Assembly: GCA_032250835.1 (NCBI GenBank)
Contig: JAVVEA010000001.1
Location: forward strand, 1 to 64,000
Length of the DNA: 64,000 nt
From: a bacterium
GTDB taxonomy: Bacteria; SAR324; XYD2-FULL-50-16
Direction of reading: 5' to 3'
Shown here: positions 13,936 to 60,555 of the stretch, in pieces
Layout: each line of letters starts with the position of its first letter
How positions within the stretch are numbered: the stretch's first letter is position 1
Notes under the pieces: generated by a model
Database searches by the model: none
What the model was told of the DNA's origin: nothing
The model's input: only the letters and a program-made list of their open reading frames with translations
Position numbers and translations under genes: made by a program

Positions 13936-14112
13936 ATTCCCCGCCTGGTGTTTACTTCGCACCCCCAGATTAACAGGTTCCATCTGGACAGGTCATTTGG
14001 GGATATCTGTATTGGCGTTCAAAGACTTTGCTGTGCAGTCGGTATGGTGGATGTTTTGTCCGGTGGTAACAGGTTGCGCACCTAGGTCGTAATTTTATAA
14101 TATCTTAATTTA

Positions 14113-17637: not shown

Positions 17638-17638
17638 T

Positions 17639-43495: not shown

Positions 43496-44478
43496 TGGAG
43501 GATAAAAAAGAGATTACTTTTAACGTCCTCTGCTTCAACCCAGAAGTAGACGAAAAGCCTTATTTCAAGAGCTACGACATAGAATTGGAAAAGGGTATTA
43601 CCGTCTTACGGGCGTTAAACTACATCAAAGACCATGTAGACCAGAACCTGACCCACCGCTTCTTTTGCCAGGCCGGTATCTGCGGTTCCTGCGCGGTGCG
43701 CGTTAACGGCGTTTCGAAACTCGCTTGCACCACCCAGGTTTGGGATGAATTGGAAGTGAGCAAGTCCGCCGACACCATTGTGGTCGAGCCGCTAAACAAC
43801 TTCACGATCATGCGCGATCTGGTGGTTGATATCGAACCAATGGTCGAAAAACTGGTCAAATATAAGTCTTGGGTGGTTCCGGCCACCAAAGACGCTGATT
43901 TGGGCATCAAGGAATGTGACGTAAAGCCCGAGGAGTTTGAGCCCATCAACGCGGCGACTGACTGTATCCTTTGTGCTTCTTGTTACTCCGAATGCACCAT
44001 TACGGAAGGGTCAGAACAGCAATTCATCTCTCCTTTGGTGATGCTGCGGGCCTACCGCATGAACAAAGATACCCGCGACACCATCGGGGCCGAGCGCCTG
44101 AAGGTGTTGGTCGAAGACCATGGTATCTGGGACTGCACCCACTGCTACCGTTGTGTGGAGTCTTGCGTTAAAAATATCCCGATCATGGACGCCATCCAGG
44201 GCCTACGCGAGGAAACCTTCAAGCGCGGTATGACGAACAGCGAAGGTGCCAGGCACGCCAAGGTCTTCTTGGATGACACCATCAACCTGGGCCGCGCCAA
44301 CGAGGTTACCTTACCGCTGCGCACCTTGGGCCCGATCGGTTCACTAAGCCAGATTCCTTTCGCCATCAAGATGGGCCTTAAGGGACGGGTACCGCCGATT
44401 ATCCCGCACAAAATCGCCAGCCGCAAATCCGTTAAGCGTATGCTGACGGAAGTGATGAAAGACAGCAAACAGGACTAA
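43495..44478 (+). CDS. sdhB: SDH/FRD iron-sulfur subunit, type-E form
   Basis: CQAGICGSC...C [2Fe-2S] motif, then CILCASC and CTHCYRCVESC (4-Cys third cluster) plus a C-terminal extension. Confidence 0.9.
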   Translation: MEDKKEITFNVLCFNPEVDEKPYFKSYDIELEKGITVLRALNYIKDHVDQNLTHRFFCQAGICGSCAVRVNGVSKLACTTQVWDELEVSKSADTIVVEPLNNFTIMRDLVVDIEPMVEKLVKYKSWVVPATKDADLGIKECDVKPEEFEPINAATDCILCASCYSECTITEGSEQQFISPLVMLRAYRMNKDTRDTIGAERLKVLVEDHGIWDCTHCYRCVESCVKNIPIMDAIQGLREETFKRGMTNSEGARHAKVFLDDTINLGRANEVTLPLRTLGPIGSLSQIPFAIKMGLKGRVPPIIPHKIASRKSVKRMLTEVMKDSKQD

Positions 44479-44504
44479 GCCTTAGGCAACGTTAAGAGAA
44501 AAAC

Positions 44505-45365
44505 ATGAAATACGCTTATTACATCAGCTGTGTAAACGAGTCGATGACCAAGGAATTGGACAAGTCTTTGTTCCTTTGGAACCAAGAATTGGGCATCGAA
44601 TTGGTCAAACTAGCTGACGGAACCTGCTGCGGCGGAAGTAACACCGACTTTGTCCACCCCAACGTGAACTTGGTCAACAACGCCCGCAATATCGTCTTGG
44701 CCGAGCAGATGGGCCTAGACTTGGTAACCAGCTGCAATACCTGCCTCTTAGGGATTCTACATGTTAAGCACCAGCTAGACACGGAGCCCAAAAAGAAGGA
44801 AATGGTCAACCACTACCTTGCCAAAGAAGGCATGGAATACAAGGGCACCAGCGCCGTCAAACACCTCTTGTGGGTGCTCAATGAAGACTATGGCCTAGAT
44901 AAGATCAAAGCCAAGGTCAAGAAGCCCCTGACGGGAGTCAAGTTTGCCAGCTTCTACGGCTGCCATATCCTGCGCCCTAGTGAGTTGATGGGCAAACATG
45001 ACGATCCCTACGCCCCTCGGTCTTTAGATATGTTGATCGAGGCCCTCGGCGGCGAGACCGTCGAATATGAGAGCAACAACAAGTGCTGTGGGTTCCACAC
45101 GCTGTTGGTGGCTCCTGAAGAAAGCTTTAAGGTTGGCGGTAAAGCCGTGGCCGAAGCCGTTCAGGCCGATGCCGACTACATCGTTACCCCCTGCCCGTTA
45201 TGTCATATGTCCTTGGATAGCTACCAAGACAAAGGCATGGCTAGCCAAGGCAAAAGTGGCTCTATGCCGATCCTTCACCTATCCCAAGCGGTCGGTTTGG
45301 CCCTAGGTTATAGCGAAAAGGAACTGGGGATCGACAAACATGTGGTCACCGCCCGCATTGCCTAA
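44505..45365 (+). CDS. CCG-domain (HdrB-like) subunit SdhE of a type-E succinate:quinone oxidoreductase
   Basis: Two CCG motifs (TCCGG...SCNTC; KCCGF...PCPLC) and YGCH. Confidence 0.88.
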
Positions 45366-47611: not shown

Positions 47612-47962
47612 ATGCACCGAATATTAAGGCATAAAATGCTCAAATGGTCAGGTTGGATTTTATTGTTCTGTTGTCTGGGTGCTAGTGCCCAAGCCCAAGA
47701 GGGCCGTAACCTCTATTTTGAGTCCGGTTGCGATAGCTGCCACGGGCCGATGGGTATGGCCCTGGGGACGCCTACTTTGGCGGGACGGGAAGTGGAAGAT
47801 TTGCTTTCTAAGAGCCTGATGATCCAACACAACCAAAACCCTACGGGCGCATCCCTAATGATGCGCGAAAACCCGGCGATGGCTAAACTAGACGCAGTTC
47901 AACTGAGGGAGATTGCAGTCTGGCTATCCCAATTAGACCCCAACAATCCAGCTGAGGAATGA
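47612..47962 (+). CDS. Monoheme class I cytochrome c (c553-like)
   Basis: Signal peptide, CDSCHG, P.LAG and a distal Met region. Confidence 0.82.
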   Translation: MHRILRHKMLKWSGWILLFCCLGASAQAQEGRNLYFESGCDSCHGPMGMALGTPTLAGREVEDLLSKSLMIQHNQNPTGASLMMRENPAMAKLDAVQLREIAVWLSQLDPNNPAEE

Positions 47963-47963
47963 C

Positions 47964-48890
47964 ATGAGGCTACTTACTCGATCGGACTTTGACGGCTTGG
48001 TGTGCGCTGCCCTGCTGTACGAAGCGGAAGTGATTACGGACATCAAATTTGTACACCCCAAAGACGTGCAAGATGGCAAGATTGAGGTTGGTCCAGATGA
48101 TGTGCTGGCGAACGTGCCCTATGCACCGGGCGTGGGCCTTTGGTTTGACCACCATGCTTCCGAAGACGACCGCCTCAACCTCAAAGACGGAATGAAGTAC
48201 GAAGGCCAATCGACCAAAGCGCCGTCTTGTGCCCGGGTGATTTTTGACTACTACGGCGGGGCCGAGAAATTTAAAGGGATGGTGGCTAACGGATTGATGG
48301 AAGCGGTGGACAAGTGTGACTCGGGCCAATTTGACCGCTCCGACATTTTAGACCCCAAGGGCTGGGTTTTGCTCTCCTTCATTATGGACCCTCGCACCGG
48401 TTTGGGCCGCTACAAAGACTACCGCATCTCCAATTATCAGTTGATGGAGAAACTAGCCCACAAATGCCGCCAGGAATCAGTAGAAGCCATTTTAGGCGAC
48501 GCCGATGTAAAGGAACGCATTGACCGCTATTTTGAGCAGGAAGCCGAATATGAAGGCATGCTCAAACAATACACCCAAACCGATAAAAACGTTTTGGTGA
48601 TCGACCTGCACGACTGCTCTGAAATCGTCACCGGCAACCGGTTTAAGGAATATGTGGTCTACCCGAACCAAAACATCAGCATCCGCATCATCTGGGGCTT
48701 CCAGAAGCAAAATATGGTGATGACCGTGGGCCATTCGGTATTTAACCGGACCAGCAAGACCGATGTGGGCAAGTTGATGTTAAAGTACGGCGGCGGCGGC
48801 CACCCCTATGTGGGCACTTGTCAAGTCCCCACTGAAGACTGGGAAAGGATCCGCGACGAGATCATCACCCAGCTGAAAGCCGACGGTTAG
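47964..48890 (+). CDS. DHH-family phosphoesterase (exopolyphosphatase-like/nanoRNase)
   Basis: TRSDFDG, FDHH and GGGGH motifs. Confidence 0.88.
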   Translation: MRLLTRSDFDGLVCAALLYEAEVITDIKFVHPKDVQDGKIEVGPDDVLANVPYAPGVGLWFDHHASEDDRLNLKDGMKYEGQSTKAPSCARVIFDYYGGAEKFKGMVANGLMEAVDKCDSGQFDRSDILDPKGWVLLSFIMDPRTGLGRYKDYRISNYQLMEKLAHKCRQESVEAILGDADVKERIDRYFEQEAEYEGMLKQYTQTDKNVLVIDLHDCSEIVTGNRFKEYVVYPNQNISIRIIWGFQKQNMVMTVGHSVFNRTSKTDVGKLMLKYGGGGHPYVGTCQVPTEDWERIRDEIITQLKADG

Positions 48891-48919
48891 TCGGTTAACC
48901 CTTCAATCCTCAGTATTCT

Positions 48920-49372
48920 ATGGAAACAACACCCAATGCCTCGCGCCGCGCCCTTTTGGGTGCTGGTGCTGCCGTCCTCGGGGTGGCCGCTTTGAGCGGG
49001 CCTCTGTCCGCTCAAATGGACCATTCCCAGCACGGCCCGAAAGGTGCCTATGCTCAATTGATTCAGGCAACCAATCACTGCCGGTTGACCGCTTTAGCTT
49101 GCGAAAAACACTGTATTTCGGCCCTTAAAACGGGCGATACGGAACTGGTAGATTGTTTAGCCAGCGTAACGGAGATGTTGCCGGTAATTGAGGCCACCAA
49201 TCGTTATGCAATCCTTGATGCCACCCGGCTGAAGGAGTTGGCCGCAGTTTGCGCCCAAGTCTGTGCCGACTGCGCCAAGACCTGCAAAAAGCATATCAAG
49301 GAGCATAAGGAGTGCAAAGACTGTTACGACTCCTGTCTAGAATGCGAAAAAGCCTGCAAAGCCGTCGCTTAG
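48920..49372 (+). CDS. Tat-exported four-helix-bundle copper storage protein (Csp1-like)
   Basis: SRRALLG Tat motif, MDHSQH, and 13 Cys in CxxxC/CxxC helical spacing. Confidence 0.88.
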   Translation: METTPNASRRALLGAGAAVLGVAALSGPLSAQMDHSQHGPKGAYAQLIQATNHCRLTALACEKHCISALKTGDTELVDCLASVTEMLPVIEATNRYAILDATRLKELAAVCAQVCADCAKTCKKHIKEHKECKDCYDSCLECEKACKAVA

Positions 49373-49398: not shown

Positions 49399-49421
49399 AG
49401 GGGCCGAAAGGCCCCTTTTTT
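49399..49421 (+). terminator. Intrinsic terminator after csp
   Basis: AGGGGCC-GAAA-GGCCCCTTTTTT. Confidence 0.85.
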
Positions 49422-49878
49422 ATGGCCCTGGTAGGGCCCCGCCCCAGCGTTCGCCGTGGCAAAGGTAACAAGAGGGGCCCAGGTCTCCTTTTAGATCGAG
49501 GCCATGGCAGCCGGATAGGGCGCAGCTGGACTCTGGGCTATGCAGCCCTGCCGCGTGGAAATAGCCGCCGTACAGTAGATTATGCCCCGGTGCATAGCTG
49601 CGGTGGTCTTGATAATTATCGCTCCACTTGACTCCGTGGCAGCTATAACAAGAGGGCCCGTTACCGCCGGTTAAGTCGCTGCCATGGCAGCTCGAAGAAC
49701 TACAATAGCTATTGGGGTGTTTATAGTCTTCGCCGTGGTACACCCCGTCTTTATTTTTGCTGTGGTAGCTATCGTATCCCTGCCCGCTGTCTTCTTCGGT
49801 TTCCTTGGACTCATCCCCCGTAGGGTCTAAGTCAGACGCTTTGCAGCCTATAAGGCTCAAGGAGAGCAGCAGAACCAA
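49420..49878 (-). CDS. Tetraheme cytochrome c lipoprotein (2 CX4CH + 2 CXXCH); 5' end possibly frameshifted in a T9 run
   Basis: Lipobox LIGC; CSSSSCH, CYSCH, CALSGCH and CYLCH in two repeats homologous to the 55150-55878 protein. Confidence 0.8.
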   Translation of the reverse strand: MVLLLSLSLIGCKASDLDPTGDESKETEEDSGQGYDSYHSKNKDGVYHGEDYKHPNSYCSSSSCHGSDLTGGNGPSCYSCHGVKWSDNYQDHRSYAPGHNLLYGGYFHAAGLHSPESSCALSGCHGLDLKGDLGPSCYLCHGERWGGALPGP

Positions 49879-50017
49879 AAAAAAATTGGCTGATTCTTCA
49901 ATTTAACAAAAACTACAACGGGGTTTGCTTGGTGGATGGGCGTTGCCCTTAGACCCCAATAATCTAGCTAAACCTGCCCGCAAAGAAAAGGGAAAAAACC
50001 ACCGAAGCTTGTGAGTT

Positions 50018-50551
50018 CTATGCTTTAAGGGGCTTCTTCGAAAAGAGGGGCCAAAGAATCAAGAAGCTCGCTATCCCCACCCCCAATACGCTCATAGTCG
50101 CCGAAGGCGTGGCTAGCCAGGATAGGTTGGCCTTTGCTGCGCCAGTGCTGCCTAAAGAGGGAGCCAAACGCCCAGCGAGCATCCAACAGAGCGGATAAAA
50201 CAGGGCGCCAAAACCCAATAAAAAGGCCGTTAGGCTGCGGAGTTTTCGCTCAACCGGTACCAGCGCCAAGCCCAGAATCAAGACCAAGGCGGTGGTGCCC
50301 ATACCGGTGGCGTGGAAGTGGGCGCGTTTGATGTAGGTCCATGATTTGCCCAATATCTTGTCCATTTTGCTCTGGTCGCTATGGTAGACCTGTTCAAAGA
50401 CCGCCTGTGCATCGTCTCGGAGGCCTGCTTTGATGTCGTCTTCAAAGACTCCGAAGTAGATCCCAAGGCTAAAACCGTAGATCAGCGACAGCAAGGCCAG
50501 CATTGTACCAATGCGCATCTCACGTAAACCAGACAATAATACAGCCGACAT
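50018..50551 (-). CDS. Hypothetical 4-TM membrane protein with HxH motif
   Basis: AAGGAG RBS, four hydrophobic helices and RAHFHATGMG. Confidence 0.75.
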   Translation of the reverse strand: MSAVLLSGLREMRIGTMLALLSLIYGFSLGIYFGVFEDDIKAGLRDDAQAVFEQVYHSDQSKMDKILGKSWTYIKRAHFHATGMGTTALVLILGLALVPVERKLRSLTAFLLGFGALFYPLCWMLAGRLAPSLGSTGAAKANLSWLATPSATMSVLGVGIASFLILWPLFSKKPLKA

Positions 50552-50666
50552 ACGACTCCTTTAGGTGAGGTCGGTTAATCCAAGTGTCCTAATGCAACCT
50601 AGGGGCTTAAAGCTAGCTCCCCGTTAAATTAAGGTAAAATTTTTGAAATAGGGTAATGTATCGGGA

Positions 50667-51338
50667 TTAGACCTTGTATTCGAGCATGTACCCAACGCCA
50701 CGGATGGTGTGGATGTATTCTTTGGGGGTTAATTCCTCTAGTTTCTTGCGGATGGATTTGATGTGAACATCCACCACATTGGTCGTCGGGTCGAAATCAT
50801 AGCCCCAAACGTTTTCCAGGATTTGGGTCCGGCTAACGACACATTCTTGGTTGCGTACCAAGTACTCTAAGATCGCATACTCTTTGGGGCGTAAAACCAG
50901 TTCTTTACCGGAGACATAAACCCGGTGGCTCTGGGTGTTAACTTCCAAACCGCCTACCTCCAGCTTGATCATCTCGGTTTGTTTGCGGCGCAGCAGGGCC
51001 CGGACCCGGGCAAGAAACTCTTCGAAGCTAAAGGGCTTGGTCATGTAGTCATCAGCGCCCATGTCCAGGCCTTTGACCTTGTCCGCCACGGTGATTTTGG
51101 CGGTCAACATCAAGACCGGAGTTTGTAACCCCCCTTCACGCAGGGCTTTGCAGACTTTAAATCCTTCCATTTTGGGCAGCATCACATCCATCACGATCAC
51201 ATCGTACTGCCCCGTTAAGCCATGTTCTAAGCCTGCTTCGCCGTCGGTGACGAGGTCAACCGTGTAGCGCTCTTCTTCTAGGCCTTTTTTAATGAAGTTG
51301 GCCACGCCTTGTTCGTCTTCGATCAATAAAATCCTCAT
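50667..51338 (-). CDS. OmpR-family response regulator (heavy-metal CusR/CzcR-like)
   Basis: LLIEDE, VMDVMLP, GADDYMTKPF, VVDVHI and IRGVGY motifs. Confidence 0.93.
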   Translation of the reverse strand: MRILLIEDEQGVANFIKKGLEEERYTVDLVTDGEAGLEHGLTGQYDVIVMDVMLPKMEGFKVCKALREGGLQTPVLMLTAKITVADKVKGLDMGADDYMTKPFSFEEFLARVRALLRRKQTEMIKLEVGGLEVNTQSHRVYVSGKELVLRPKEYAILEYLVRNQECVVSRTQILENVWGYDFDPTTNVVDVHIKSIRKKLEELTPKEYIHTIRGVGYMLEYKV

Positions 51339-52027
51339 GGGGTCCTTAATTGCTTATTTTTGATCTCTGCGCAACCGAAGAAGCCCTGCTCCATCAACAC
51401 GGTGATGTTGTCCTCGGCGAGCAGTTTGGCCGCCGTTTGGGCAGAGATTTTATTGTCTTTGTTTTCTGTATAGGTTTCGCAGAAAAATACCTTAAACTTA
51501 ACCTCTAAATCATCTTTCACCTTCATCAATCCAGCCCGGTAGGGCTTAACGTCAAACTCGGACTGCTGGATGGTGAACTGGCCGGTGACTTTCACTACCG
51601 GGGGGATATATTGGAAGTGGGTGCTGATTTCTAAAGGGCGCTTGACGCCATGCATTTCTATTTCACCGACTACCTTCTTGGGTTGTTCGGCCGGCTTGAA
51701 GTGGTCTAAATCGACCACAATGGTCGGGTAGGTGGTGGCGTCCATGTAGCCGGGTTTGTTGAGCACGTCCTCTACCATGGGGAGGTCGAATTTTAGGTCC
51801 TTAAACCGGAGCGTCAACCGCCCGGTATACAAACCATGTTCCTCCAGCAGTTCCCCCTCTTGGCGGGTTGCTTCCCCTTTAAAGTCAAAAAAATTGGTTT
51901 TGCCCGCAACCTCGATATAGCCCTTTTGGAGAATCCGGTAGATCTCGTGCCCTTCCTCTTCTTCGGCGGCCCAGAGGGACCCCGCCATCAAGCATAGGCC
52001 AAAGATCAGGGTGGTCGTCGCTTTCAT
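51335..52027 (-). CDS. YceI-like periplasmic lipid/isoprenoid-binding protein
   Basis: Signal peptide from ATG 52027 (ATGA overlap), MDATTYPTI, G.I.MHGVKRP and F.I.QSEF.V motifs. Confidence 0.72.
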   Translation of the reverse strand: MKATTTLIFGLCLMAGSLWAAEEEEGHEIYRILQKGYIEVAGKTNFFDFKGEATRQEGELLEEHGLYTGRLTLRFKDLKFDLPMVEDVLNKPGYMDATTYPTIVVDLDHFKPAEQPKKVVGEIEMHGVKRPLEISTHFQYIPPVVKVTGQFTIQQSEFDVKPYRAGLMKVKDDLEVKFKVFFCETYTENKDNKISAQTAAKLLAEDNITVLMEQGFFGCAEIKNKQLRTP

Positions 52028-53484
52028 TTGGTCTCCGGAGCGGCAAAGTCGCCGAAGCGGTGGGTCCGTTTCAAGCGTTCCTTGCGTTCTTCGTCCGTCA
52101 GGGCCTCCTTGCGGGGGCCATACTTCTTCTCTCGGTAGTCCCAGAGGTCGCCAAAATGCTCGTTGTGGCATTCTACACAGGCCTCTCGGACCTTTTTATA
52201 GGTTACGCTCTGGTGCTCTTGCTTGTGACAGGTAGCGCAGTTGACGGTGCGGAACATAGGGTCCGGGCCGATGGGTTGCCCCTGTTTGTCAAGCCAAGCC
52301 CCCTCCATAGCGGACCGTACCGCGTAGTGACAGCCTTCGCAGCTGGCTTTTTCGCCCATCAGGTACTGTCCCTTGGGGTGGCAGTCTTTACACTTGACTT
52401 GGGAATGTAGCTGCTTGATAGGGAAGTCGGTCTTGTCGTGCTTAAACTCCTTTCCCCACTTTGCCGAGAGGTCATGACAGCGGCTACAGGTATCCGGAGC
52501 AAACTGCGCCTGATGCGGGTCTTTGTGGCAATCGGTGCACAGGGAAAAGCCCTTGCGCTTAAAGTCTTTATGGTCCCGGCTCGTATGGCACTTTTCGCAG
52601 TCCACCCGCTTGTGTACCCCCACCAATTTGAACCGCGTTTTTTGGTGGTCAAAGCCCTTAGCTTCTTTGGGGTCTAACATCTTAGACCAGTCTTCGGGGC
52701 TGTGGCAGCTAGCGCACTGCTCGCCGCTGCGTCCCTGGTGGGGGTCGGCGTGGCAGGTGCTACACTGCTGGCCCAGCTTTTCGAAGGGCGCAAAGTCCGG
52801 GTGCTTTTCGTCTTTGTGGTGGCAGGCTATACAGGTCAGCTTGCGGTGTTTGCCCCGCAGCTTAAAGTCCGATTGTTTTTCGTGGTCAAATTTGGTCAGG
52901 CTCCAGGCTTGGTCCGTATGGCAACTGCTGCATTGCTGGTCTTGAAACTGGGGTCCATGTTCCTTCCCGTGGCAAGACAAACAGTCTTCGGTTAAGCCTA
53001 AGAAGGTCTCCCCTTCGCGCTTGCGCTGGTCGATTTTCAGGCTGCGGACGGCTTCTGACTGGTATTTGGGCTGGTGGCATTCCTCGCACTTAAGGGGCTG
53101 GTGTTTGCCGGTGAGGTCGAGCTTGAGCTTGGAGTGATCCACCTGAGCGGGGTCAAAAAGCTTACCTTCGCGGCCCTTGTGGTCGGTATGGCAGCTTAGG
53201 CAGTCTTTGGATCGATTGGCTTCGAGTCCGTGCCAGCCAAGACGCTGGTCGATGCGGGATTTGATCTCCTGGTGGCATTCGAGGCACAAGAGGTCGCTCA
53301 CGCCCTTGTTGAGCGTATGGCATTGCATACAACCCAGCGTGGTCTCTAGGTAAAAATGGCTTTTAGAGAGGGGGCCGGGGCTGAGCATGTCGCCCAGCTT
53401 TTCCACCATGTTTTTATCCTGCGCCCAACCGGGCAGGGCCCAAAAAAGAAAGCCCAGCAGCAGCAGCCCACGTTTAATGGTCAT
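52024..53484 (-). CDS. 16-heme cytochrome c (periplasmic)
   Basis: Signal peptide from ATG 53484; SPGPLS.SH start; 16 CXXCH counted; repeated (F)DH...F.L.G.H triheme modules. Confidence 0.9.
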   Translation of the reverse strand: MTIKRGLLLLGFLFWALPGWAQDKNMVEKLGDMLSPGPLSKSHFYLETTLGCMQCHTLNKGVSDLLCLECHQEIKSRIDQRLGWHGLEANRSKDCLSCHTDHKGREGKLFDPAQVDHSKLKLDLTGKHQPLKCEECHQPKYQSEAVRSLKIDQRKREGETFLGLTEDCLSCHGKEHGPQFQDQQCSSCHTDQAWSLTKFDHEKQSDFKLRGKHRKLTCIACHHKDEKHPDFAPFEKLGQQCSTCHADPHQGRSGEQCASCHSPEDWSKMLDPKEAKGFDHQKTRFKLVGVHKRVDCEKCHTSRDHKDFKRKGFSLCTDCHKDPHQAQFAPDTCSRCHDLSAKWGKEFKHDKTDFPIKQLHSQVKCKDCHPKGQYLMGEKASCEGCHYAVRSAMEGAWLDKQGQPIGPDPMFRTVNCATCHKQEHQSVTYKKVREACVECHNEHFGDLWDYREKKYGPRKEALTDEERKERLKRTHRFGDFAAPETK

Positions 53485-54148
53485 GGCCCTCCTCGGACTC
53501 TCCAAGCTGCAAGCTGTGGTGTTCTTTGACATAAGAAATCGGCACCACTCCGTGGATGATCCCCATAAACCCCTTGCGGGTGCTGGGGTTGATGGTGGCC
53601 ATAAAGATATGTCCGCTCAGCAGGCCAATGGACCCCAAGGCGATTAGGGTATGGCTCCAACGCGGAAGCATGCCCTGCGGGAAGAGCCACAGCCAGATAC
53701 CGGTGGCCTGAAGGGTCAAGCTGATCCCCATCATCAAAAGGCTATTGATCTTTTGGCCCATGTTAAACTTACCGGCCGCTACATGCAGCTTTTTGGGCTG
53801 GGCTTTGATCCACTCGATGTCTCGTTTTTCTATGGTCAAGATTTGCCGCAAGTTATCTAAAATCGTGCGGGTGTTGCCAATAATACTCACCAAGGGCGGG
53901 GCAAGGATCAACAAAATGCCAAAGAGCTTGTGCAAGTCGCTGATAAACTCGCTGCGCTCTTGCAGGAAAAGACCCTGAACGGCTAAAGCCAAACCGCTGG
54001 CTAAGAGCACCAAGAAAGGCAGCCCATGGCCCCAATGCAGCAAGATTTCGGTTTTGGTGAACCGCAGAAAGGTCTTGCCCGGCTGCACGGGAGGCCGGAA
54101 CCCCTCGAGCTGATCTTCTAAGTGTTCGATTTGATCACCGATGGACAT
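53474..54148 (-). CDS. Cytochrome b, FdnI/formate dehydrogenase gamma-like
   Basis: RFT..E.LLHW, LHK.FG, GKFNMGQK, SH and GHIFMA; four TM helices with heme-ligating His. Confidence 0.88.
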   Translation of the reverse strand: MSIGDQIEHLEDQLEGFRPPVQPGKTFLRFTKTEILLHWGHGLPFLVLLASGLALAVQGLFLQERSEFISDLHKLFGILLILAPPLVSIIGNTRTILDNLRQILTIEKRDIEWIKAQPKKLHVAAGKFNMGQKINSLLMMGISLTLQATGIWLWLFPQGMLPRWSHTLIALGSIGLLSGHIFMATINPSTRKGFMGIIHGVVPISYVKEHHSLQLGESEEGHDH

Positions 54149-54150
54149 GG

Positions 54151-55140
54151 CTATATCCTGTTCTGCTGCAAGAAAATTTGTTGGCCTAAGCTGACACGGC
54201 TATCTCTGCGCACCAGTCGAACTTCAAAAAATTCGGCTCGACCCAACAAACTCCGCGAAAAGGTAAAAACCTGCTCATAAGTTTCGCCGGCTTTGATGAA
54301 GTCTTTGTTTTCAGCGTGAAAGACCCGTTGCTGCTCTTCGATCACCTGCCCAGAAGCCGACTTCAGGGAAACAATCAGGTCCACCGCCTTAAATCCAAAG
54401 ATCCCTGCCGGAACGCCGTGGGGGATACGGTGGGACAGGCGCAGCGAGATCGGCAGGCCCCTTTCGGTTTTAGGGAGGAGTTGGTGGGTCGCCGTGAACC
54501 AAGGGGCTTCGCCTGCTGGAGCTTGAGGGAGCGCGTCGAAGGTGTGTTTCTTGGTATCCATGCGCCAGTGAGCATATTGCATGATGCCCTTGACGATCAA
54601 CTTGCGGTAGGCCGCGGGCATGTGGCAATCCTGGCAGGTTTGAAGCTCTTTGCCCTGGGCTTCCAGGCGCTTTTCGGTGGCTTTCCATTGCTCGAAGTGG
54701 GCTTCGTGGCAAGTGCCGCAAAGCTTACTCTCCAAGAAATAGGGATCGCTCATCTTGACGTAGTGGGCGGGCAGAACAAAGTGTGGGCCGCCAATTTCGC
54801 CGTCAGGGGTCAGGTGGCAGGTCACACAATTGACCCCTTCCTTGGCGTGTTCTTGGCGCAGGGTGACTTTGTCGGTCCCATAGATTGGCATGGCCCGGTG
54901 GCAAGCCAAACATTTTTCAACCTGGTAGTCGTCCGTTTCCTTGCGGAAGGCCTCGGAAATCCAGGCCTTGGCGTGGCCGCTTTCCTTCCACTCTTCATAT
55001 TCGTTGAAGTGACACTCACCGCAACCTTCAGAAGAAAAACTATTGGGCGGAGCTTCCACTATCTCGCTGTGGAGGAAACAGCCACTTAAGCTAAAGGCAA
55101 CCAGCGAGATTAAGAGTGCCTTAAACAGCCTTTGGTTCAA
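54151..55140 (-). CDS. Pentaheme cytochrome c lipoprotein (c554-like domain)
   Basis: Lipobox LSGC; CGECH, CLACH, CVTCH, CGTCH and CQDCH; EW..SGHA and H.VP.G C-terminal domain. Confidence 0.85.
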   Translation of the reverse strand: MNQRLFKALLISLVAFSLSGCFLHSEIVEAPPNSFSSEGCGECHFNEYEEWKESGHAKAWISEAFRKETDDYQVEKCLACHRAMPIYGTDKVTLRQEHAKEGVNCVTCHLTPDGEIGGPHFVLPAHYVKMSDPYFLESKLCGTCHEAHFEQWKATEKRLEAQGKELQTCQDCHMPAAYRKLIVKGIMQYAHWRMDTKKHTFDALPQAPAGEAPWFTATHQLLPKTERGLPISLRLSHRIPHGVPAGIFGFKAVDLIVSLKSASGQVIEEQQRVFHAENKDFIKAGETYEQVFTFSRSLLGRAEFFEVRLVRRDSRVSLGQQIFLQQNRI

Positions 55141-55149
55141 CGTGGTCCC

Positions 55150-55878
55150 TTATTTAGCCGGGGCTAGGTTATCGTTGTCACCATCGGCCCACTCAGCACC
55201 GTGGCAGCGGTAGCAACTAGGGGCACCGGTGGTGGCATCGCCGGTGAGGCTGGCTCCGTGACAGGAAACACAATTGGTGTAGGGGTTATTCTTGCCTGAA
55301 CCGTGCATCACTCCGTCTTCGCTGTCATTGTGTGGGTAGCTGCTGTAAAGCCAACGAGCACCGTGGCATTCGTAACAGCTAGGCTCGGTTGTGCTGCCGC
55401 CTTTTAGGTCCGACCCATGGCATTCGGTGCAGCTGCTTTCGGGGGTATAAAGCCCGGTGGCGTGGTAATAGCTGCCTTTAAGCTCCGTATGGCTCTCTAA
55501 AGCGGTCCATTTGTCTCCGTGGCAGCTGTAACAGCTCGGTCGGCTGCGCTTGCCGGTCAGTGCGGTGCCGCCATGACATTCAGAGCAATTGTTCTTAGCG
55601 CTGAAGTAGCCGTGCTTGTGCATGACCCCGCTTTTGTTGATCTGGTGTTCCGACTTGTCCCACATCACGCCGTGGCAGTCATAACAGCCGGGAATCCAGC
55701 CGTTGCCTTTGAGGGTGATGCCGTGGCAGGCCGTACAGTCCTTAGCGCCTTGATAGAGCTTTTTGCCATGCTCTGCGCCGTCCAGGTCGATGTTGTGTGA
55801 GGTGATCCCTTCCTTACAGCCAGCCATAGCTAGCGCCAGGAAAAGAAACCCCACAATGGCTAAAATTGAAGTCCGCAT
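55150..55878 (-). CDS. Octaheme cytochrome c lipoprotein made of four di-heme repeats
   Basis: Lipobox MAGC from ATG 55878; CTACH, CYDCH, CSECH, CYSCH, CTECH, CYECH, CVSCH and CYRCH. Confidence 0.88.
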   Translation of the reverse strand: MRTSILAIVGFLFLALAMAGCKEGITSHNIDLDGAEHGKKLYQGAKDCTACHGITLKGNGWIPGCYDCHGVMWDKSEHQINKSGVMHKHGYFSAKNNCSECHGGTALTGKRSRPSCYSCHGDKWTALESHTELKGSYYHATGLYTPESSCTECHGSDLKGGSTTEPSCYECHGARWLYSSYPHNDSEDGVMHGSGKNNPYTNCVSCHGASLTGDATTGAPSCYRCHGAEWADGDNDNLAPAK

Positions 55879-56441
55879 ACTAAGCTGCCTCCGATCAGGC
55901 CCCCCCAAGAGTTTACAATGCCGTCACAGGTGACTAGGTCCCAAGACATACTTCCGCGCAACAGCAGCGCGCCATAGTGGATATCTTTAGCGGTATAAAA
56001 GGGGCTAGGGTCGCCCAACTGATTCCCGCCAGAAACCTGTAAGTCCTCAGTCATCTCCGCGAACCCGTAGCCGATACCCGGCCCAAAGCTAAAGCCGCCG
56101 ATGTCCTTTTCTAAAAAGTAGCTGAATTCGTAGGCGATCAGCTGGACCGTAACGGCCGCAGTCAACCCCCGGTCACTCAGGTTACCGGAGCCCGACAGGT
56201 TATGGTAGGTGAAGGAAGTTTCTTGGTTGTCAAAGCCAATAAGCCCCAGGTCGAGACCCTCGGTTTTGTAACTGGCAATCAGGTCTAGGCCGAACAGCGG
56301 CATGATCTGCGTGGTGACGCCCGTACCGGCTTGTAGCTTGATATCGCCAGCCTGGACCGGGCTTGACCAAGTTAACAAAAGGCAGGTGGCCAAGGTGGTC
56401 AGCCAAGCCGTAGGGCGCATCTTCAAGGAGTTTTTCTTCAT
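55860..56441 (-). CDS. Small outer-membrane beta-barrel protein
   Basis: Signal peptide ending VQA, amphipathic strands (FSFGPGIGYG) and C-terminal GLQF. Confidence 0.65.
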   Translation of the reverse strand: MKKNSLKMRPTAWLTTLATCLLLTWSSPVQAGDIKLQAGTGVTTQIMPLFGLDLIASYKTEGLDLGLIGFDNQETSFTYHNLSGSGNLSDRGLTAAVTVQLIAYEFSYFLEKDIGGFSFGPGIGYGFAEMTEDLQVSGGNQLGDPSPFYTAKDIHYGALLLRGSMSWDLVTCDGIVNSWGGLIGGSLVCGLQF

Positions 56442-56528
56442 TGGGGTCTACCGATCAAGCGTCACAGGGTCTTAGGAGTGGTTGGTTCCGTCAATGGTGC
56501 CGCAGGCGTACTGCACGTGACTGCGGGT

Positions 56529-56582
56529 ACTTTAGGCCCCTTAAATGAAGCGAAAGTGAACCGTAGATGAAATGCAGTTCAT
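56529..56582 (-). promoter_or_regulatory. OmpR-type operator repeats plus -10 box for the barrel/cytochrome operon
   Basis: Minus strand ATGAA-N6-TTCAT-N6-TTCAC-N6-TTCAT-N10-TAAAGT. Confidence 0.65.
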
Positions 56583-56617
56583 CTTAAGGCCAAGACTAAC
56601 ATAAACTGCCTATAGGA

Positions 56618-57871
56618 TCAAAGAGAATTGATCTGGGTAGCTTTACCTGATTGGGGTAGCAAGATTTCCGCAGTAAAAAGGCCCGTATCGTCGATGCCGA
56701 GGCGTAACTTGCCTCCATGCGAAAGGACAATATAATTCACAATATTTAAGCCTAATCCTTTGCCGGAAGCTTGGAATGCCTCGGTATTCGATCCCCTAAA
56801 GAAAGGGGTGAGCAATTCCTTGGGCTTCATACCCTGGGTGGCCTTGGATTGGTTGGTTAGGGTTAGGCGCACGAAAGCCTCCTTGCGCTCGGCCGCTAAG
56901 TGGATCGAACCGTTTTCCACGCTATATTTTATGGCATTATCCAACAGGTTCCCTAAGGCCCGAATCATTAAAGTGGGGTCACAAAACAATTCAATCTCTC
57001 CGCCGCCTGCGTCAATTAATTTCAAAGATTTTGCCTCGATGCGCGGGCGCAGTTCTTTGAGGAGGTCGGCCAGCATCTCATGTACCGGAACCCGCTCTTT
57101 CAGCAGGCTTAAGGACTGAAAATTAGCACTAGCCAACAGGTAAAGGTCCTGCAGTAAGGCGATCACCCGGTTGGTCTCTTTTAGCCCTAAGGCAATGAAT
57201 TCGCGGTATTCCTCGGGTTTACGTTCTTTGCGTAAGGAAACCTCCAAATTGCCTTTGATGGAAGTCAAGGGAGAGTGCAATTCGTGGGTTACGTTAGAAC
57301 TGAAGTTTTCTTGGAACCTAAAGGCTTCGGTAATGGGCCGCATGGCCAGGATCACCAGTAGTCGGCCTAAGATGAAGCTCAAGAGGACAATTCCGGGGCT
57401 AGAAAGCAAAACCAACCGCAAAAAGCGCTGTTCGTAATTCAGCAGTTGCGTGATCGGCTCGGCGATGCGGCCTAAGTAGGTTTTATCTAACCTAAAGTAG
57501 TGGATTAGGTAGCGTTTATCCCCAAAGTTAACGACCTCAAAGACTTGGTCGTCTTGATCGGCCTGGCGGAATAACCTTTGGTTGATTGGTAAGGTGAAAT
57601 AAACTGAATTGGAGGTTTGGCTGAGCAGCCGCCCATCATTGCTGAAAATCTGGAAAACTTCGTCTTCGTTGATCTGGGTGAACTCCTCAAAGTCATTGAG
57701 GCGGTAATGATCCACAAACTCTTCGCGGCCATCTTCTACGATGTCGGCCTTGAGGGTGTCTAAGATGGATTCGTGAAGATAAAAGTAGCTGATCGAAAGC
57801 ACCAACACGCTAAAGGAGATGATCCCCAGTGTGAACAACGCGGTTAGGCGATTTTTGGTCTCTTGGATCAT
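56618..57871 (-). CDS. Membrane sensor histidine kinase (2 TM)
   Basis: THELHSPL H-box, NLLDNAIKYS, FFRG and GKGLGL motifs. Confidence 0.9.
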   Translation of the reverse strand: MIQETKNRLTALFTLGIISFSVLVLSISYFYLHESILDTLKADIVEDGREEFVDHYRLNDFEEFTQINEDEVFQIFSNDGRLLSQTSNSVYFTLPINQRLFRQADQDDQVFEVVNFGDKRYLIHYFRLDKTYLGRIAEPITQLLNYEQRFLRLVLLSSPGIVLLSFILGRLLVILAMRPITEAFRFQENFSSNVTHELHSPLTSIKGNLEVSLRKERKPEEYREFIALGLKETNRVIALLQDLYLLASANFQSLSLLKERVPVHEMLADLLKELRPRIEAKSLKLIDAGGGEIELFCDPTLMIRALGNLLDNAIKYSVENGSIHLAAERKEAFVRLTLTNQSKATQGMKPKELLTPFFRGSNTEAFQASGKGLGLNIVNYIVLSHGGKLRLGIDDTGLFTAEILLPQSGKATQINSL

Positions 57872-57874
57872 GGG

Positions 57875-58462
57875 CTACTGGGGGATTCGGACATAGTCTT
57901 CAGAATAGACGCCGGCTGCGGCCCGTTGGTGGCAGGCCACACAGTTGGAAAGGCTCTTGATCGCCGGGCGAGCGATTACGGTGGCGCTGACCTCGTTGTG
58001 TTCGTGCCTAAAATAGGGCAATTCGGTGATGCGCATCGGTGCTTCCCCTTGGATCGACCGAACTAGCTTTTGGGCCCGGCCACTGCTTGAGGTTTCGGCC
58101 GCATTGCCCAGCAGATAGCCGCGCACCTGTGCCAGATTGGCGGCATCTAGAACGGCGTCGTCGCCGAAGTGGTCTTCTAAATGGGCCAATACCCGTTCCC
58201 AACTTTGGCTAGGTAGTAGTTCAGCCTGATAGGCAAAATGGCAAGCGCCACATTCGCTCAGGTAAACTTGGTTGGTGATGGGTTTGATGTGGCGTTCGCT
58301 GATCTCCTCTTTCTCGCGGTGTCCCTCATGGGGAGCTTCCTCAAAGAACATCTCCATAAACCCTTCGCGCTCGCCCCGCTCAATGGAATCTGCCCAAAGG
58401 GGGGCGGATAATGAAAGACAACCGAGAAAGGCCAAAAGAAACCAGAGGAGCGAACGATTCAT
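57875..58462 (-). CDS. Diheme cytochrome c (DHC)
   Basis: YLSECGACHFAY...LP..SW...L.DHFG, RITELPYF..EH and SNCVACH. Confidence 0.92.
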   Translation of the reverse strand: MNRSLLWFLLAFLGCLSLSAPLWADSIERGEREGFMEMFFEEAPHEGHREKEEISERHIKPITNQVYLSECGACHFAYQAELLPSQSWERVLAHLEDHFGDDAVLDAANLAQVRGYLLGNAAETSSSGRAQKLVRSIQGEAPMRITELPYFRHEHNEVSATVIARPAIKSLSNCVACHQRAAAGVYSEDYVRIPQ

Positions 58463-58475
58463 AAATCCTTAGAGG

Positions 58476-58916
58476 CTATAGGGAATAGATATACTCAAGA
58501 AAATCCCCTTGTTCAGTGGCGGTGCAGCTGCGCTCAAAGGTCCACTTGCAATTACGCCGGAACCATTTCTTGATTTTTTTTTCTTTAGTGAAGCGCTCGC
58601 GGTTCACAGCTGGCGACAGTGGGTCGATGGGCTTGCCGGTAACGGCATGTTTACTGGGCAACATGGGGTTGTCTTTGTGGCAAGTGGCGCAGGTACGCTT
58701 GTCGCCGTCTTCGCTATCGATATGTTCTTTAAAGTAGAGGGTTTTGCCGCGTTCAGCCGAAAAGGCGGTGAAGGCTGGGTCCTCTTGTTTCGCTTCTTTA
58801 GCTAATTCCTGCATAAAAGCGGTCACCGTCGGGTTTTTGGGGATCGCAGCCCAGACAGTTTGGGTTGAAAGTAGAGCGATAAGTCCAGCGGCAAGACCAG
58901 TAAACAACGTCTTCAT
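58476..58916 (-). CDS. Sphaeroides heme protein (SHP, DUF1924)
   Basis: CATCH, TGKPIDPLSPAVN.ERFT and KWFRRNC...R.CT..E.GDF. Confidence 0.9.
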   Translation of the reverse strand: MKTLFTGLAAGLIALLSTQTVWAAIPKNPTVTAFMQELAKEAKQEDPAFTAFSAERGKTLYFKEHIDSEDGDKRTCATCHKDNPMLPSKHAVTGKPIDPLSPAVNRERFTKEKKIKKWFRRNCKWTFERSCTATEQGDFLEYIYSL

Positions 58917-58978: not shown

Positions 58979-59032
58979 AATGTAAACGGCAAAGATGAAG
59001 AATCAATTAAGCCTGAATGAACAAAATTTCAT
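58979..59032 (-). promoter_or_regulatory. OmpR-type operator repeats plus -10 box for shp-dhc-kinase
   Basis: Minus strand ATGAA-N6-TTCAT-N6-TTAAT-N6-TTCAT-N10-TACATT; same spacing as 56529-56582. Confidence 0.65.
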
Positions 59033-59079: not shown

Positions 59080-59805
59080 TTATGGCTTGAGTTTGATGAT
59101 CAACTTATCAAATTCAAGGTTGGTTTGCTCGAGGATCGGCTCTAGGTGGCCGGTTAAATCTTTTATCAAAGCGCTCGAAGACTGCTCTGCGGCTCGCTCG
59201 ATACGCTGACCCAGGCGGCTCATGGCGGCGGCTCCGACGTTGCCGGTCATGCCGCGGAACTTATGGGCCCAATCGCGGAGTTCTATAAAGTCCTCTGCTT
59301 CAAGCATTTGTTTGATTTGCTGGATCATTATGGGGGCATCTTCGGTGAAGATGTTGATCAGAGACCTCACCAAATCTGGGTCCACTTCTTTTCTGGACTC
59401 AATTAAGCGGAGGTCTAATAGGTCGCCCGGAACCCACTGGTCCCGCTCGTTTAATTCAAGGTTTACGGCGCGGATACAGTCTTGAAAGGCCTCTAGGTCT
59501 AAGGGCTTGGGTAGATAACAAAACCAGCCCTGCTCGGGGGTGATCACCGGGCCGAGGCTGCTTCCAAGTCCGACCCAAAGGGTAGCTTGGGCCTGCAACT
59601 GCGCCATGGCAAACAACTCTTCATTGTCCGTCGAGAGTAGGACTAAGTCGAAGGGGTCGTTTTTTAAGCATTGGCTCATTTCTTCTAGACTGGTGGCTAT
59701 ACAGGCCTGTTGGCCGACGAATCGCAAGAACTGTTCTAACACGAGCCGGTCGGTGTTTCGGTCTTCGGTTGCCAAAATCTTTAACATAGGTATTTCATTT
59801 TTCAT
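59080..59805 (-). CDS. Pseudo-receiver + Hpt domain protein
   Basis: ILATED...FDLVLLS...KP receiver-like N-terminus; AHKFRGMTGNVGA Hpt motif. Confidence 0.8.
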   Translation of the reverse strand: MKNEIPMLKILATEDRNTDRLVLEQFLRFVGQQACIATSLEEMSQCLKNDPFDLVLLSTDNEELFAMAQLQAQATLWVGLGSSLGPVITPEQGWFCYLPKPLDLEAFQDCIRAVNLELNERDQWVPGDLLDLRLIESRKEVDPDLVRSLINIFTEDAPIMIQQIKQMLEAEDFIELRDWAHKFRGMTGNVGAAAMSRLGQRIERAAEQSSSALIKDLTGHLEPILEQTNLEFDKLIIKLKP

Positions 59806-59955: not shown

Positions 59956-60555
59956 ATGAATTACTTTTTTGGCCGCCGCCTACTTAAAACCTTAGTGATC
60001 GCTTTGGCCCTAACTTGGACCGGTGCCACCGTACAAGCTGAGACCTTTACCGTTGACCCTGTCCATTCGACCATCGGGTTTCGGGTCCCGCACATGATGA
60101 TTTCAAAAGTCCGCGGTAATTTTAAGGAATTTACCGGCACCTTTGATTTTGACGAAAAAACCAAAAAACTGAGCCAAATCAAAGCAGAGGTTCAAACTGT
60201 TAGCTTGGATACGCAGAATGAAAAGCGAGACGGCCACCTGCGCAGTCCCGACTTTTTTGATAGCCAAAAGTTCCCGATGCTTCGCTTTGAAAGCACCAAG
60301 ATCACCCAAAAGGGTGATCGCTACGAAGTGACCGGCAATTTGACGATCAAAGACGTAACCAAGTCGGTGACGTTAAAAGGCGAACTCCTGGGCGTAGGTA
60401 AGGGCTTTAAAGGTAAAACCCTGGTGGGCTTTGAAGCTCAGGGCGAAATCAACCGAAAAGACTTTGGGATGACCTGGAACCGTATGATTGAAACCGGTGG
60501 CTTCGCCGTCGGCGACGAAGTCCAATTGGTCATCGAGATTGAAGCTAGTAACTAA
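59956..60555 (+). CDS. yceI: YceI-family periplasmic protein
   Basis: DPVHSTIGF, RDGHLRSPDFFD, GNLTIKDVTK and INRKDFG motifs. Confidence 0.92.
   Translation: MNYFFGRRLLKTLVIALALTWTGATVQAETFTVDPVHSTIGFRVPHMMISKVRGNFKEFTGTFDFDEKTKKLSQIKAEVQTVSLDTQNEKRDGHLRSPDFFDSQKFPMLRFESTKITQKGDRYEVTGNLTIKDVTKSVTLKGELLGVGKGFKGKTLVGFEAQGEINRKDFGMTWNRMIETGGFAVGDEVQLVIEIEASN

Follow-up and report, generated by a model that had tools for sequence, protein, structure and literature searches.

The question raised by the multiheme cytochrome cluster described here is whether its products carry electrons across the outer membrane or serve a branch that stays within the periplasm. The cluster lies in a stretch of 64,000 nucleotides (nt) from a SAR324 bacterium (GTDB lineage Bacteria; SAR324; XYD2-FULL-50-16; GenBank assembly GCA_032250835.1, contig JAVVEA010000001.1, positions 1 to 64,000 of the forward strand), the whole of which was analysed and is referred to as the window. 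It comprises twelve open reading frames (ORFs) that share the minus strand and span 49420-58916 in the ORF list of the window, labelled g1 to g12 in their 5' to 3' order on that strand. An initial annotation, made from the sequence alone, had proposed a non-canonical trans-envelope electron-transfer system, leading from quinol through a cytochrome b and a 16-heme cytochrome to lipoprotein cytochromes of the outer membrane, or in reverse. The reading put forward here, to which we would give a probability of about 55%, is that two co-regulated operons build a quinone-linked, periplasm-facing electron-transfer branch, and not an outer-membrane conduit.

In its description of the locus the initial annotation was largely accurate. 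All twelve ORFs follow each other on one strand as claimed, and scans against Pfam and NCBIfam with curated cut-offs, run over 51 ORFs of the window, back the families that had been named; the same scans gave no catalytic Mo/W, NiFe, flavin or Fe-S subunit in the cluster region, again as stated. Canonical CxxCH motifs number 34 (1+2+8+5+16+2 in g1, g2, g5, g6, g8 and g12, respectively), and the earlier figure of 36 c-type heme motifs is reached only if two CX4CH motifs of g12 (CSSSSCH and CALSGCH) are added, which is reasonable because the same repeat position has CX4CH in the g5-family members P0066 and P0067. Out of 37 CxxCH motifs in the six reading frames of the 64-kb window, 34 fall in the cluster, all on the minus strand, as against a mean of 0.5 and a maximum of 3 when the region was shuffled (200 mononucleotide shuffles). 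The overlapping or tight packing claimed for the cluster holds from shp (g1) through dhc (g2) to the kinase gene g3 (13 and 3 nt) and from g4 to g10 (-19, +9, +2, -11, -4 and -4 nt with the most plausible starts), while it is broken by gaps of 176 nt before g4, 115 nt before g11 and 139 nt before g12. Each part of the cluster belongs to a known kind, and the whole is a mosaic of three modules: parts of an SHP operon, the core g6-g7-g8, and a lineage-restricted pair, g4-g5.

The proposed link to the quinone pool is provided by g7, a di-heme cytochrome b of the FdnI/HydC type with four transmembrane (TM) helices, which is translationally coupled to both g6 and g8. Four histidines (His 38, 73, 166 and 180) are invariant in all four PF01292 cytochromes b that were aligned, namely g7 and three counterparts; the last two are 14 residues apart, as in FdnI. 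FdnI is also the sole match in the PDB (1kqf_C, E 6.7e-4), and together with a PF01292 score above the cut-off and the four invariant histidines this bears out the FdnI-type assignment made originally. The initial annotation had allowed for an accessory module of formate dehydrogenase, and this was rejected: g7 scores below the equivalog cut-offs (56.2 bits on TIGR01583, cut-off 115.85; 29.1 bits on NF007558, cut-off 339), and no genes for Mo or Fe-S subunits lie nearby. Because g7 falls below the cut-offs for formate dehydrogenase gamma subunits and has no catalytic subunit nearby, it is, as judged from its sequence, a quinone-interacting cytochrome b of the FdnI/HydC type in another context than formate dehydrogenase. 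The adjoining gene g8 encodes a 16-heme cytochrome with a signal peptide, predicted to be periplasmic. The first 11 nt of g8 fall within g7, with ATG 53532 as an alternative start, and a sequence search of the PDB gave no solved relative at E 0.1 or better.

The third member of the core, g6, is a pentaheme lipoprotein of 329 residues, for which comparison leads to proteins of known structure. A word-index search gave a family of 36 members, and a profile made from 21 of these matched T. tepidum cytochrome c552 (PDB 5ze8, E 1.6e-18) in two stretches, the heme cap and a C-terminal domain that carries a PHxxP(T)G motif. The same profile matched the MccSep (ExtKL) structures 9wt8 and 9wt9 (E about 4e-9) as well as 6i5b (E 1.1e-11), which was deposited as an uncharacterised protein and is presumably the surface reductase OcwA. 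In an alignment of 48 sequences of the g6 family the five CxxCH motifs are invariant (48/48), as are His56, His126, His199, His241 and Arg95 (48/48 each), Met174 is retained in 47 of 48, and no conserved Cys was found beyond the heme motifs and the lipobox. By its sequence g6 is a pentaheme cytochrome of the same family as T. tepidum c552 and MccSep/ExtKL. In three reports c552, ExtKL, PtdA and the sPHC of cable bacteria are grouped as a single family of pentahemes whose stem is Ig-like (PMC11976967; 10.1101/2023.11.21.568154; 10.1101/2025.11.18.688581), and MccSep is reported there as a periplasmic polysulfide reductase in which Cys239 ligates heme 2 and the selenocysteine Sec325 is catalytic (10.1101/2025.11.18.688581). 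In g6, U325 of MccSep aligns to Ile247 (HMMER alignment), and there is no Cys between heme motifs 4 and 5, where C239 was placed. The identity as a MccSep-type enzyme was rejected, g6 having neither the selenocysteine nor the Cys and reaching 46.6 bits on the NCBIfam model for ExtKL against a cut-off of 250; g6 is thus, on sequence grounds, a member of the pentaheme family and not a MccSep-type enzyme. The aligned N-terminus of T. tepidum c552 has no lipobox Cys.

The same three genes are found together elsewhere. A scan of species-representative genomes yielded 80 loci among the 599 stretches listed, the best of them 39% identical, and the counts of synteny refer to the 29 of these listed loci that each encode a full-length g6 homologue. 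The core g6-g7-g8 recurs in four other phylum-level lineages, represented by loci of metagenome-assembled genomes (MAGs) of Geobacter, Deltaproteobacteria, Nitrospira and Pirellulales, and an inner-membrane redox anchor of one type or another adjoins the g6 homologue in 20/29 listed loci. The initial annotation had suggested a search for synteny of the cytochrome b, the 16-heme protein, the di-heme-repeat lipoprotein and the barrel; the trio of cytochrome b, 16-heme and pentaheme proteins was recovered in other genomes, the di-heme-repeat lipoprotein and the barrel in 0/29 listed loci. In the Nitrospira locus the cytochrome b has as neighbours a kinase and a response regulator that shares 43% identity with g10. 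Among closer relatives (g6 47-70% identical), g5 and g6 homologues apparently share contigs in 4/13 of the closest g6 matches (fingerprints 576929, 146090, 325794 and 57484; unconfirmed), and for fingerprint 576929 their locus tags are adjacent. One of these relatives is a Lambdaproteobacteria record with the tags A2600_03380 and A2600_03385. Of the homologues of g5 and g6 that carry a name, the closest belong to a Candidatus Lambdaproteobacteria MAG (65-68% identity) and to SAR324 records.

The Nitrospira locus L027 (3474-10972) encodes the regulator, the kinase, the PF01292 cytochrome b, an NAD-binding/SCP2 protein of 516 residues, a small TM protein, a 19-heme cytochrome and the pentaheme lipoprotein; a similar NAD_binding_4/SCP2 protein is encoded near the g6 homologue of L022. 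In the eight planctomycete/anammox loci (L002-L008 and L036), in a stretch from about 1.5 kb before the match to 3.5 kb after it, the g6 homologue is located between genes for a b6-type cytochrome b or subunit-IV-like protein and that for a TM-anchored decaheme, which may also carry a pentaheme or be fused into a 15-heme protein, and an alpha/beta-hydrolase-like gene comes next in five of the eight. These loci look like a Rieske/cytochrome b-type cluster. Rieske/cytochrome b clusters are discussed in PMC12954380, and the resemblance of the anammox arrangement to them falls short of an established equivalence.

Table 1. Features of the cluster, with positions in the window, and genes adjoining g6 homologues in the 29 listed loci (TM, transmembrane; MAG, metagenome-assembled genome).
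Feature	Position or loci	Strand	Basis, remark or count
g1, SHP homologue (DUF1924)	58476..58916	-	PF09086 119.6 bits vs cut-off 22.5; signal peptide, one CxxCH
g2, soluble di-heme cytochrome c (DHC)	57875..58462	-	PF09626 137.4 bits vs cut-off 22.2; two CxxCH
g3, sensor histidine kinase, 2 TM	56618..57871	-	HisKA and HATPase_c
g4, predicted small outer-membrane beta-barrel, 8-stranded type	55860..56441	-	signal peptide, C-terminal Phe; Atlas model
g5, 8-heme lipoprotein, four di-heme repeats	55150..55878	-	CxxCH count; lipobox MAGC then K
g6, pentaheme lipoprotein (LSGC then F)	54151..55140	-	heme cap and C-terminal Ig-like domain, PHxxP motif
g7, FdnI/HydC-type di-heme cytochrome b, 4 TM	53474..54148	-	PF01292 47.7 bits vs cut-off 30.1
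g8, 16-heme cytochrome, predicted periplasmic, c7/c3-type repeats, signal peptide	52024..53484	-	CxxCH count, Pfam
g9, YceI-like periplasmic protein, ~50-residue C-terminal extension	51335..52027	-	PF04264 47.9 bits vs 23.7; ATGA overlap with g8
g10, OmpR-family response regulator	50667..51338	-	Response_reg and Trans_reg_C; ATGA overlap with g9
g11, 4-TM protein, no named family	50018..50551	-	membership of the unit uncertain (115-nt gap)
g12, half-size g5 paralogue, 2 CX4CH and 2 CxxCH	49420..49901	-	ORF from TTG 49878; LIGC then K
Candidate operator 1, three TTCAT-like pentamers phased 11 bp	58995..59021	-	79 nt upstream of the shp ATG
Candidate operator 2, same 11-bp-phased TTCAT triple	56545..56571	-	104 nt upstream of the g4 ATG, in the 176-nt gap
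G+C-rich hairpin between convergent g12 and csp1	49399..49416	.	likely bidirectional terminator
PF01292 cytochrome b and 13-19-heme g8 homologue beside g6 homologue	L009 (Geobacter MAG), L044 (Deltaproteobacteria MAG), L027 (Nitrospira MAG)		3 loci
DUF4405-type 5-TM protein and 16-heme g8 homologue beside g6 homologue	L020 (Pirellulales MAG)		1 locus
b6/petB-type cytochrome b and/or subunit-IV-like genes upstream, decaheme downstream	L002-L008, L036 (planctomycete/anammox)		8 loci
DUF4079 4-TM protein beside g6 homologue	L015, L016, L021		3 loci
TM-anchored triheme beside g6 homologue	L011, L012, L013, L017, L018		5 loci
No partner recognised in the available stretch	L001, L010, L014, L019, L022-L026		9 loci

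In the branch proposed here, g7 would exchange electrons with the quinone pool, whether by quinol oxidation or by quinone reduction, g8 would be a periplasmic wire or reservoir, and g6 would form the business end, either as a terminal oxidoreductase for a small periplasmic substrate or as a module for docking and relay. The single cytochrome b probably serves SHP and DHC as well, in keeping with the published path from quinol through CytB and DHC to SHP; the g5 wire and the g4 barrel would constitute a lineage-specific extension by which electrons may get as far as the inner face of the outer membrane, and the YceI-like protein g9 would be a lineage-specific accessory. A periplasmic branch is preferred over outer-membrane transfer because no porin, MtrA/MtrC-type or secretion gene is present among the scanned ORFs, and the placement in the periplasm is suggested because the barrel is small, the solved relatives of g6 are reported as periplasmic (MccSep) or align without a lipobox Cys (c552), and the homologues of g6 stand beside inner-membrane anchors.

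That the two operons are regulated together is suggested by the position of the signalling genes and by a shared upstream motif. The kinase gene g3 is the last gene of operon 1 and the regulator gene g10 the last gene of operon 2. The periplasmic domain of g3, of about 115 residues, has no family match; the best NCBIfam hit of the kinase, cztS_silS_copS (144.1 bits, cut-off 292.55), covers residues 180-390 of the cytoplasmic part only, and that of g10 is cztR_silR_copR (247.9 bits, cut-off 279.2). Membership in the CopRS/CusRS/CzcRS systems was dismissed, both proteins remaining below the cut-offs of TIGR01386/TIGR01387 and the sensor domain being unmatched. Upstream of each operon lies a triple of TTCAT-like pentamers phased by 11 bp, and the triple before operon 1 overlaps the palindrome ATGAAATTTTGTTCAT (59017-59032); direct repeats with such phasing are typical of OmpR/PhoB-type binding sites. 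The pattern TTCATn6TT[CA]A[CT]n6TTCAT has two matches in the window even when one mismatch is allowed, one upstream of each operon, as compared with 0 in shuffled sequence at no mismatch and a mean of 0.02 at one. A pattern of two repeats only, TTCAYn6TTCAY, was uninformative (2 matches vs 0.36 expected, with 6/100 shuffles reaching 2), and the triple has 0 matches in the 80 listed loci, including that of Nitrospira. With these candidate sites as operators, g3 and g10 probably control both operons.

The genes at the head of the cluster belong to a pattern known from the literature. The SHP homologue g1 has a C-x7-C pair near its C-terminus and is followed by the gene for the di-heme cytochrome DHC. 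In the available text of Meyer et al. (2010, PMC2909971), SHP operons consist of 3-6 genes for SHP, DHC, CytB and a sensor kinase/response regulator, with a proposed path quinol -> CytB -> DHC -> SHP, so the remark in the initial annotation that SHP and DHC occur with cytochrome b and two-component genes agrees with that source. SHP binds O2 and NO, and NO dioxygenase activity has been reported, according to the accessible parts of both accounts (PMC2909971; 10.64898/2026.01.22.701106).

The remaining genes are restricted in their distribution. The barrel protein g4 has 193 residues, about 160 of them in the mature protein, with H155, C172 and C189 invariant in the family alignment; it gave zero matches in Pfam even at E 10 and zero in NCBIfam, and an exhaustive profile search found only 18 representatives of its family in 1.84 billion sequences. 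Its Atlas model (pLDDT 0.72) superimposes with TM-scores of 0.61-0.79 on clusters of PF02462, PF01389, PF06316 and PF13505 (Opacity, OmpA_membrane, Ail/Lom and OMP_b-brl), which makes it, by its modelled fold, an 8-stranded-type barrel, outside the Pfam families by sequence. The start of g5 overlaps the stop of g4 by 19 nt (an alternative TTG start is found at 55908). Its repeat unit, H-x8-10-H ... CxxCHG..L.G ... PSCYxCHG..W, holds two heme motifs and two conserved His, a composition that would suit a bis-His wire, and family members have 4, 6, 8 or 10 hemes. Zero of the 40 matches of the g5 family are characterised, and no significant relative of g5 was found in the PDB (best E 0.049). Homologues of g4 and g5 apparently share contigs (fingerprints 6019, 146090, 2318 and 186866; unconfirmed) for 4/8 non-self matches of g4, the other four being on contigs of 1.2-11.8 kb. 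Because contig 186866 has the g4-g5 pair and no g6 match, the pair looks like a separate module.

Towards the end of the cluster, g11 had zero Pfam matches even at E 10 and a homologue in 0/29 listed loci; its relatives in the Atlas come from Myxococcota, Nitrospinota and Planctomycetota, with weak leads to Aq_1264_TM and NnrS. No family match for g12 was obtained in Pfam or NCBIfam, and its start is doubtful: the ORF as listed begins MVLLLSLSLIGC, with no charged n-region, and TTG 49901 opens a better frame for a lipoprotein signal peptide (MKNQPIFF...), which is out of frame across a T9 run at 49877-49885. Possible reasons for the offset are an error in sequencing the homopolymer, phase variation or decay of the gene. 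In the 6-heme g5-family proteins P0066 and P0067, the last di-heme repeat has CX4CH in place of CxxCH at its first heme, and both repeats of g12 show the same substitution; going by these sequences, CX4CH is a recurrent natural variant of the di-heme repeat of this family.

Several observations weigh against a periplasmic quinone-linked branch, or at least against parts of it. Each complex among the cluster proteins is our inference. The lipoproteins bear no signal for retention in the inner membrane and are accompanied by the gene of an outer-membrane barrel, so that they may instead reside in the outer membrane. The four invariant His of g6 serve five hemes, with M174 and R95 in addition; the fifth heme may be His/Met-ligated, open or ligated in another way, and g6 may accordingly be an enzyme or a relay. 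The membrane partner was not recognised in 9/29 listed loci, within the DNA stretches examined, homologues of shp, dhc, g4, g5, yceI, g11 and g12 were found in 0/29, and the full assembly has been seen here only, the co-occurrence in the closest relatives resting on contig fingerprints and one pair of adjacent locus tags. As regards regulation, the TTCAT pattern was defined post hoc from the two sites themselves, and a scan for sigma-70 promoters was at chance (6 found vs 5.8 expected).

Against this background the other explanations have to be judged. The trans-envelope conduit of the initial annotation, in which electrons would pass from quinol through cytochrome b and the 16-heme protein to lipoprotein cytochromes at the surface, or in reverse, for extracellular electron transfer or metal redox, appears quite unlikely, though several features speak for it. 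The lipoboxes reported then are present (MAGC/K in g5, LSGC/F in g6 and LIGC/K in g12), so that three lipoprotein cytochromes are devoid of Asp at +2, the barrel gene overlaps that of the 8-heme lipoprotein, 36 heme motifs are assembled at a single locus, and g6 is weakly similar to the presumed OcwA chain and to the ExtKL model. In addition, the ptdABCDEFG cluster, which likewise unites a pentaheme with a porin, is described as porin-cytochrome-like in the available text (10.1101/2023.11.21.568154). Against such a conduit speaks the barrel: as annotated, there is no large porin among the scanned ORFs, and the sole barrel is modelled on the 8-stranded pattern of the Opacity, OmpA and Ail proteins. 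To our knowledge, 8-stranded barrels have no lumen able to hold a cytochrome. Genes for a MtrB/PioB porin or for type II secretion were not found in the window ORFs scanned, and the scores on the DmsE/MtrA model TIGR03508 (37.9 bits for g8 and 26.5 for g6, cut-off 192.2) and the OmcA/MtrC model TIGR03507 (17.2 bits, cut-off 209.3) gave no family members. The reported location of MccSep, the c552 N-terminus and the inner-membrane anchors beside 20/29 homologues point the other way as well. Sorting by the residue at +2 has been established only in E. coli, and its application to a SAR324-type lineage is an assumption. The trans-envelope or extracellular part of the initial annotation is not supported by these data. 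Its point that CymA/NapC is missing is correct, although the combination of a b-type anchor with a multiheme c partner has precedents (CbcL, CbcBA).

A small-ligand system centred on SHP, in which the cluster would reduce SHP, an oxygenase or NO dioxygenase with O2 or NO as its ligand, while the multihemes would be a mere reservoir and the kinase would sense the same periplasmic signal, is unlikely too. In its favour, shp and dhc come first, in one operon with the kinase gene, the locus has a single cytochrome b, and it fits both the published operons, which combine SHP, DHC, CytB and kinase/regulator, and the reported O2/NO binding and NO dioxygenase activity (PMC2909971; 10.64898/2026.01.22.701106, as far as available). 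However, all four listed loci with the g6-g7-g8 core are devoid of shp and dhc (0/29 overall), the g7 gene, which is four genes distant from shp and dhc, is enclosed by g6 and g8 and translationally coupled to them, and the 29 further hemes far exceed what the published 3-gene path needs. A response to copper or another metal, with a CopRS/CusRS-like system inducing periplasmic cytochromes for metal redox beside a copper-storage protein, seems the least probable. The best NCBIfam matches of g10 and g3 are indeed heavy-metal systems, and a Csp1-family copper storage gene (106.7 bits, cut-off 100) lies 47 nt beyond g12. Yet both two-component scores are below their cut-offs, the kinase match is confined to the cytoplasmic part, csp1 is convergent in a separate plus-strand operon that has no TTCAT triple upstream, and no genes for copper oxidase, P-type ATPase or RND efflux are present at the locus. 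Improbable in its turn is another reading, in which g4-g5 would be a new, porin-independent means of placing a multiheme wire at or through the outer membrane. The di-heme-repeat lipoprotein, whose length varies (4, 6, 8 or 10 hemes), could have the barrel as its anchor, or its tether could be threaded through the barrel, as is reported for RcsF and OmpA-type barrels; if true, the conserved quinone-linked g6-g7-g8 core would reach the cell surface. As an independent possibility, g6 could be a new catalytic pentaheme enzyme, its fifth heme having no invariant His partner and its Arg95 being invariant.

The cluster does not differ in composition from its surroundings. Its G+C content of 0.50-0.55 is like that of the neighbouring DNA and the flanking genes are housekeeping genes; "island" may be kept as a descriptive word for a chromosomal cluster, not as a statement on composition, and horizontal acquisition was rejected because of the unremarkable G+C content. 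There were zero matches in Rfam at the gathering threshold between 47000 and 61000, and the terminator scan as a whole was near chance (17 terminator-like sites vs 13.5 expected). Convergent to the cluster, on the plus strand (47612-49372), is a tight set of three genes, for a mono-heme class I cytochrome c, a 308-residue protein (weak DHHA1) and the Tat-signal Csp1-family protein (TIGR04401). Directly upstream of shp, on the minus strand (59080-59805), an Hpt-domain protein with a degenerate receiver-like N-terminus is encoded, and divergent from it (59956-60555, plus) a second, canonical YceI (PF04264, 175 bits); no test linked either to the cluster. The plus-strand genes at 41795-45365 code for the flavoprotein and Fe-S subunits of a succinate dehydrogenase/fumarate reductase followed by a CCG-domain protein, that is, a quinone-linked enzyme with a non-classical membrane-anchor arrangement 4 kb from the cluster. 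At 14001-18000 the G+C falls to its minimum in the window (0.446-0.475), which coincides with a 1174-residue ORF (Laminin_G_3 as sole match) and the next ORF of 225 residues, which has no family.

Among known systems, the porin-cytochrome conduits (MtrCAB, Geobacter Pcc/Ext) share with the present cluster several multiheme cytochromes, lipoprotein cytochromes and a gene for an outer-membrane barrel. The barrels of these conduits have 20 or more strands, in contrast to g4 with its 160 or so mature residues, and the NCBIfam scores for DmsE/MtrA, OmcA/MtrC, GSU2203 and ExtKL are all far below the cut-offs; with no large porin and no decaheme family in reach, membership among Mtr-type conduits was rejected. 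The lesson for genome screening is that many hemes, lipoboxes and a barrel gene are insufficient to call extracellular electron transfer. In E. coli cytochrome b561 (yceJ) is paired with YceI, and here too a PF01292 cytochrome b and a YceI-domain protein occur in one operon, but the 16-heme gene is inserted between them and YceI is found in 0/29 listed loci. The Hmc complex of sulfate reducers resembles g8/g7 in placing a 16-heme periplasmic cytochrome (HmcA) beside a membrane cytochrome b; it was rejected, since the HmcA model NF045713 (cut-off 400) gave 29.6 bits for g8 and 25.7 for g5 and there is no Fe-S protein at the locus.

With the published SHP operons the cluster has SHP, DHC, the kinase and the OmpR-type regulator in common; a PF01292 cytochrome b is present with them on one strand, and by analogy the scheme quinol -> CytB -> DHC -> SHP could apply. 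The three cytochrome genes are close together there, whereas here the cytochrome b gene comes four genes further on, within the second operon, and has 29 additional c-heme motifs, the barrel and YceI on its flanks; kinase and regulator are split between the two operons, and g3, as judged by inspection of its sequence, is without the SK1 motifs quoted in the available text of PMC2909971. For SHP, whose function has long been open, the fusion of its operon with the trio could help, as here it would be co-regulated with a large electron reservoir.

The pentaheme family shares with g6 five CxxCH motifs in a predicted helical cap and an Ig-like C-terminal domain with a conserved His-x-x-Pro. As differences, g6 is a lipoprotein of 329 residues, c552 has 435 residues and the MccSep chain 450, and the partner of g6 is an FdnI-type cytochrome b, while the ptd cluster, in its available description, provides a porin, a flavoprotein and a ferric-reductase-like protein (10.1101/2023.11.21.568154). 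The bc-type inner-membrane quinol oxidoreductases of Geobacter (CbcL, CbcBA; Cbc1-6) have the same design, a di-heme b-type membrane subunit and a periplasmic multiheme c linking the quinone pool to the periplasm, as described in 10.1101/2021.04.15.440034. The likeness is one of architecture alone (four invariant His in g7 and its overlap with g8), with one syntenic locus from a Geobacter MAG (L009); the NCBIfam hits included no model for these proteins. According to that description, CbcA has 7 hemes and a C-terminal TM anchor, against 16 hemes and no anchor in g8, no pentaheme lipoprotein appears as a partner in the part available, and sigma-54/BccR take the regulatory part that falls to an OmpR-type two-component system in the present cluster. 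The trio, the SHP-operon fusion and the g4-g5 pair met with related systems and no description of their own in the literature searched, with subscription papers and bioRxiv supplements outside the search. Within these bounds, the pentaheme lipoprotein, the FdnI-type cytochrome b and the 13-19-heme cytochrome represent an undescribed conserved module, which would give genomic context to a pentaheme family where only MccSep has a known reaction, and would add a further quinone-to-periplasm branch to NrfH/CymA, CbcL/CbcBA, ImcH and ACIII.

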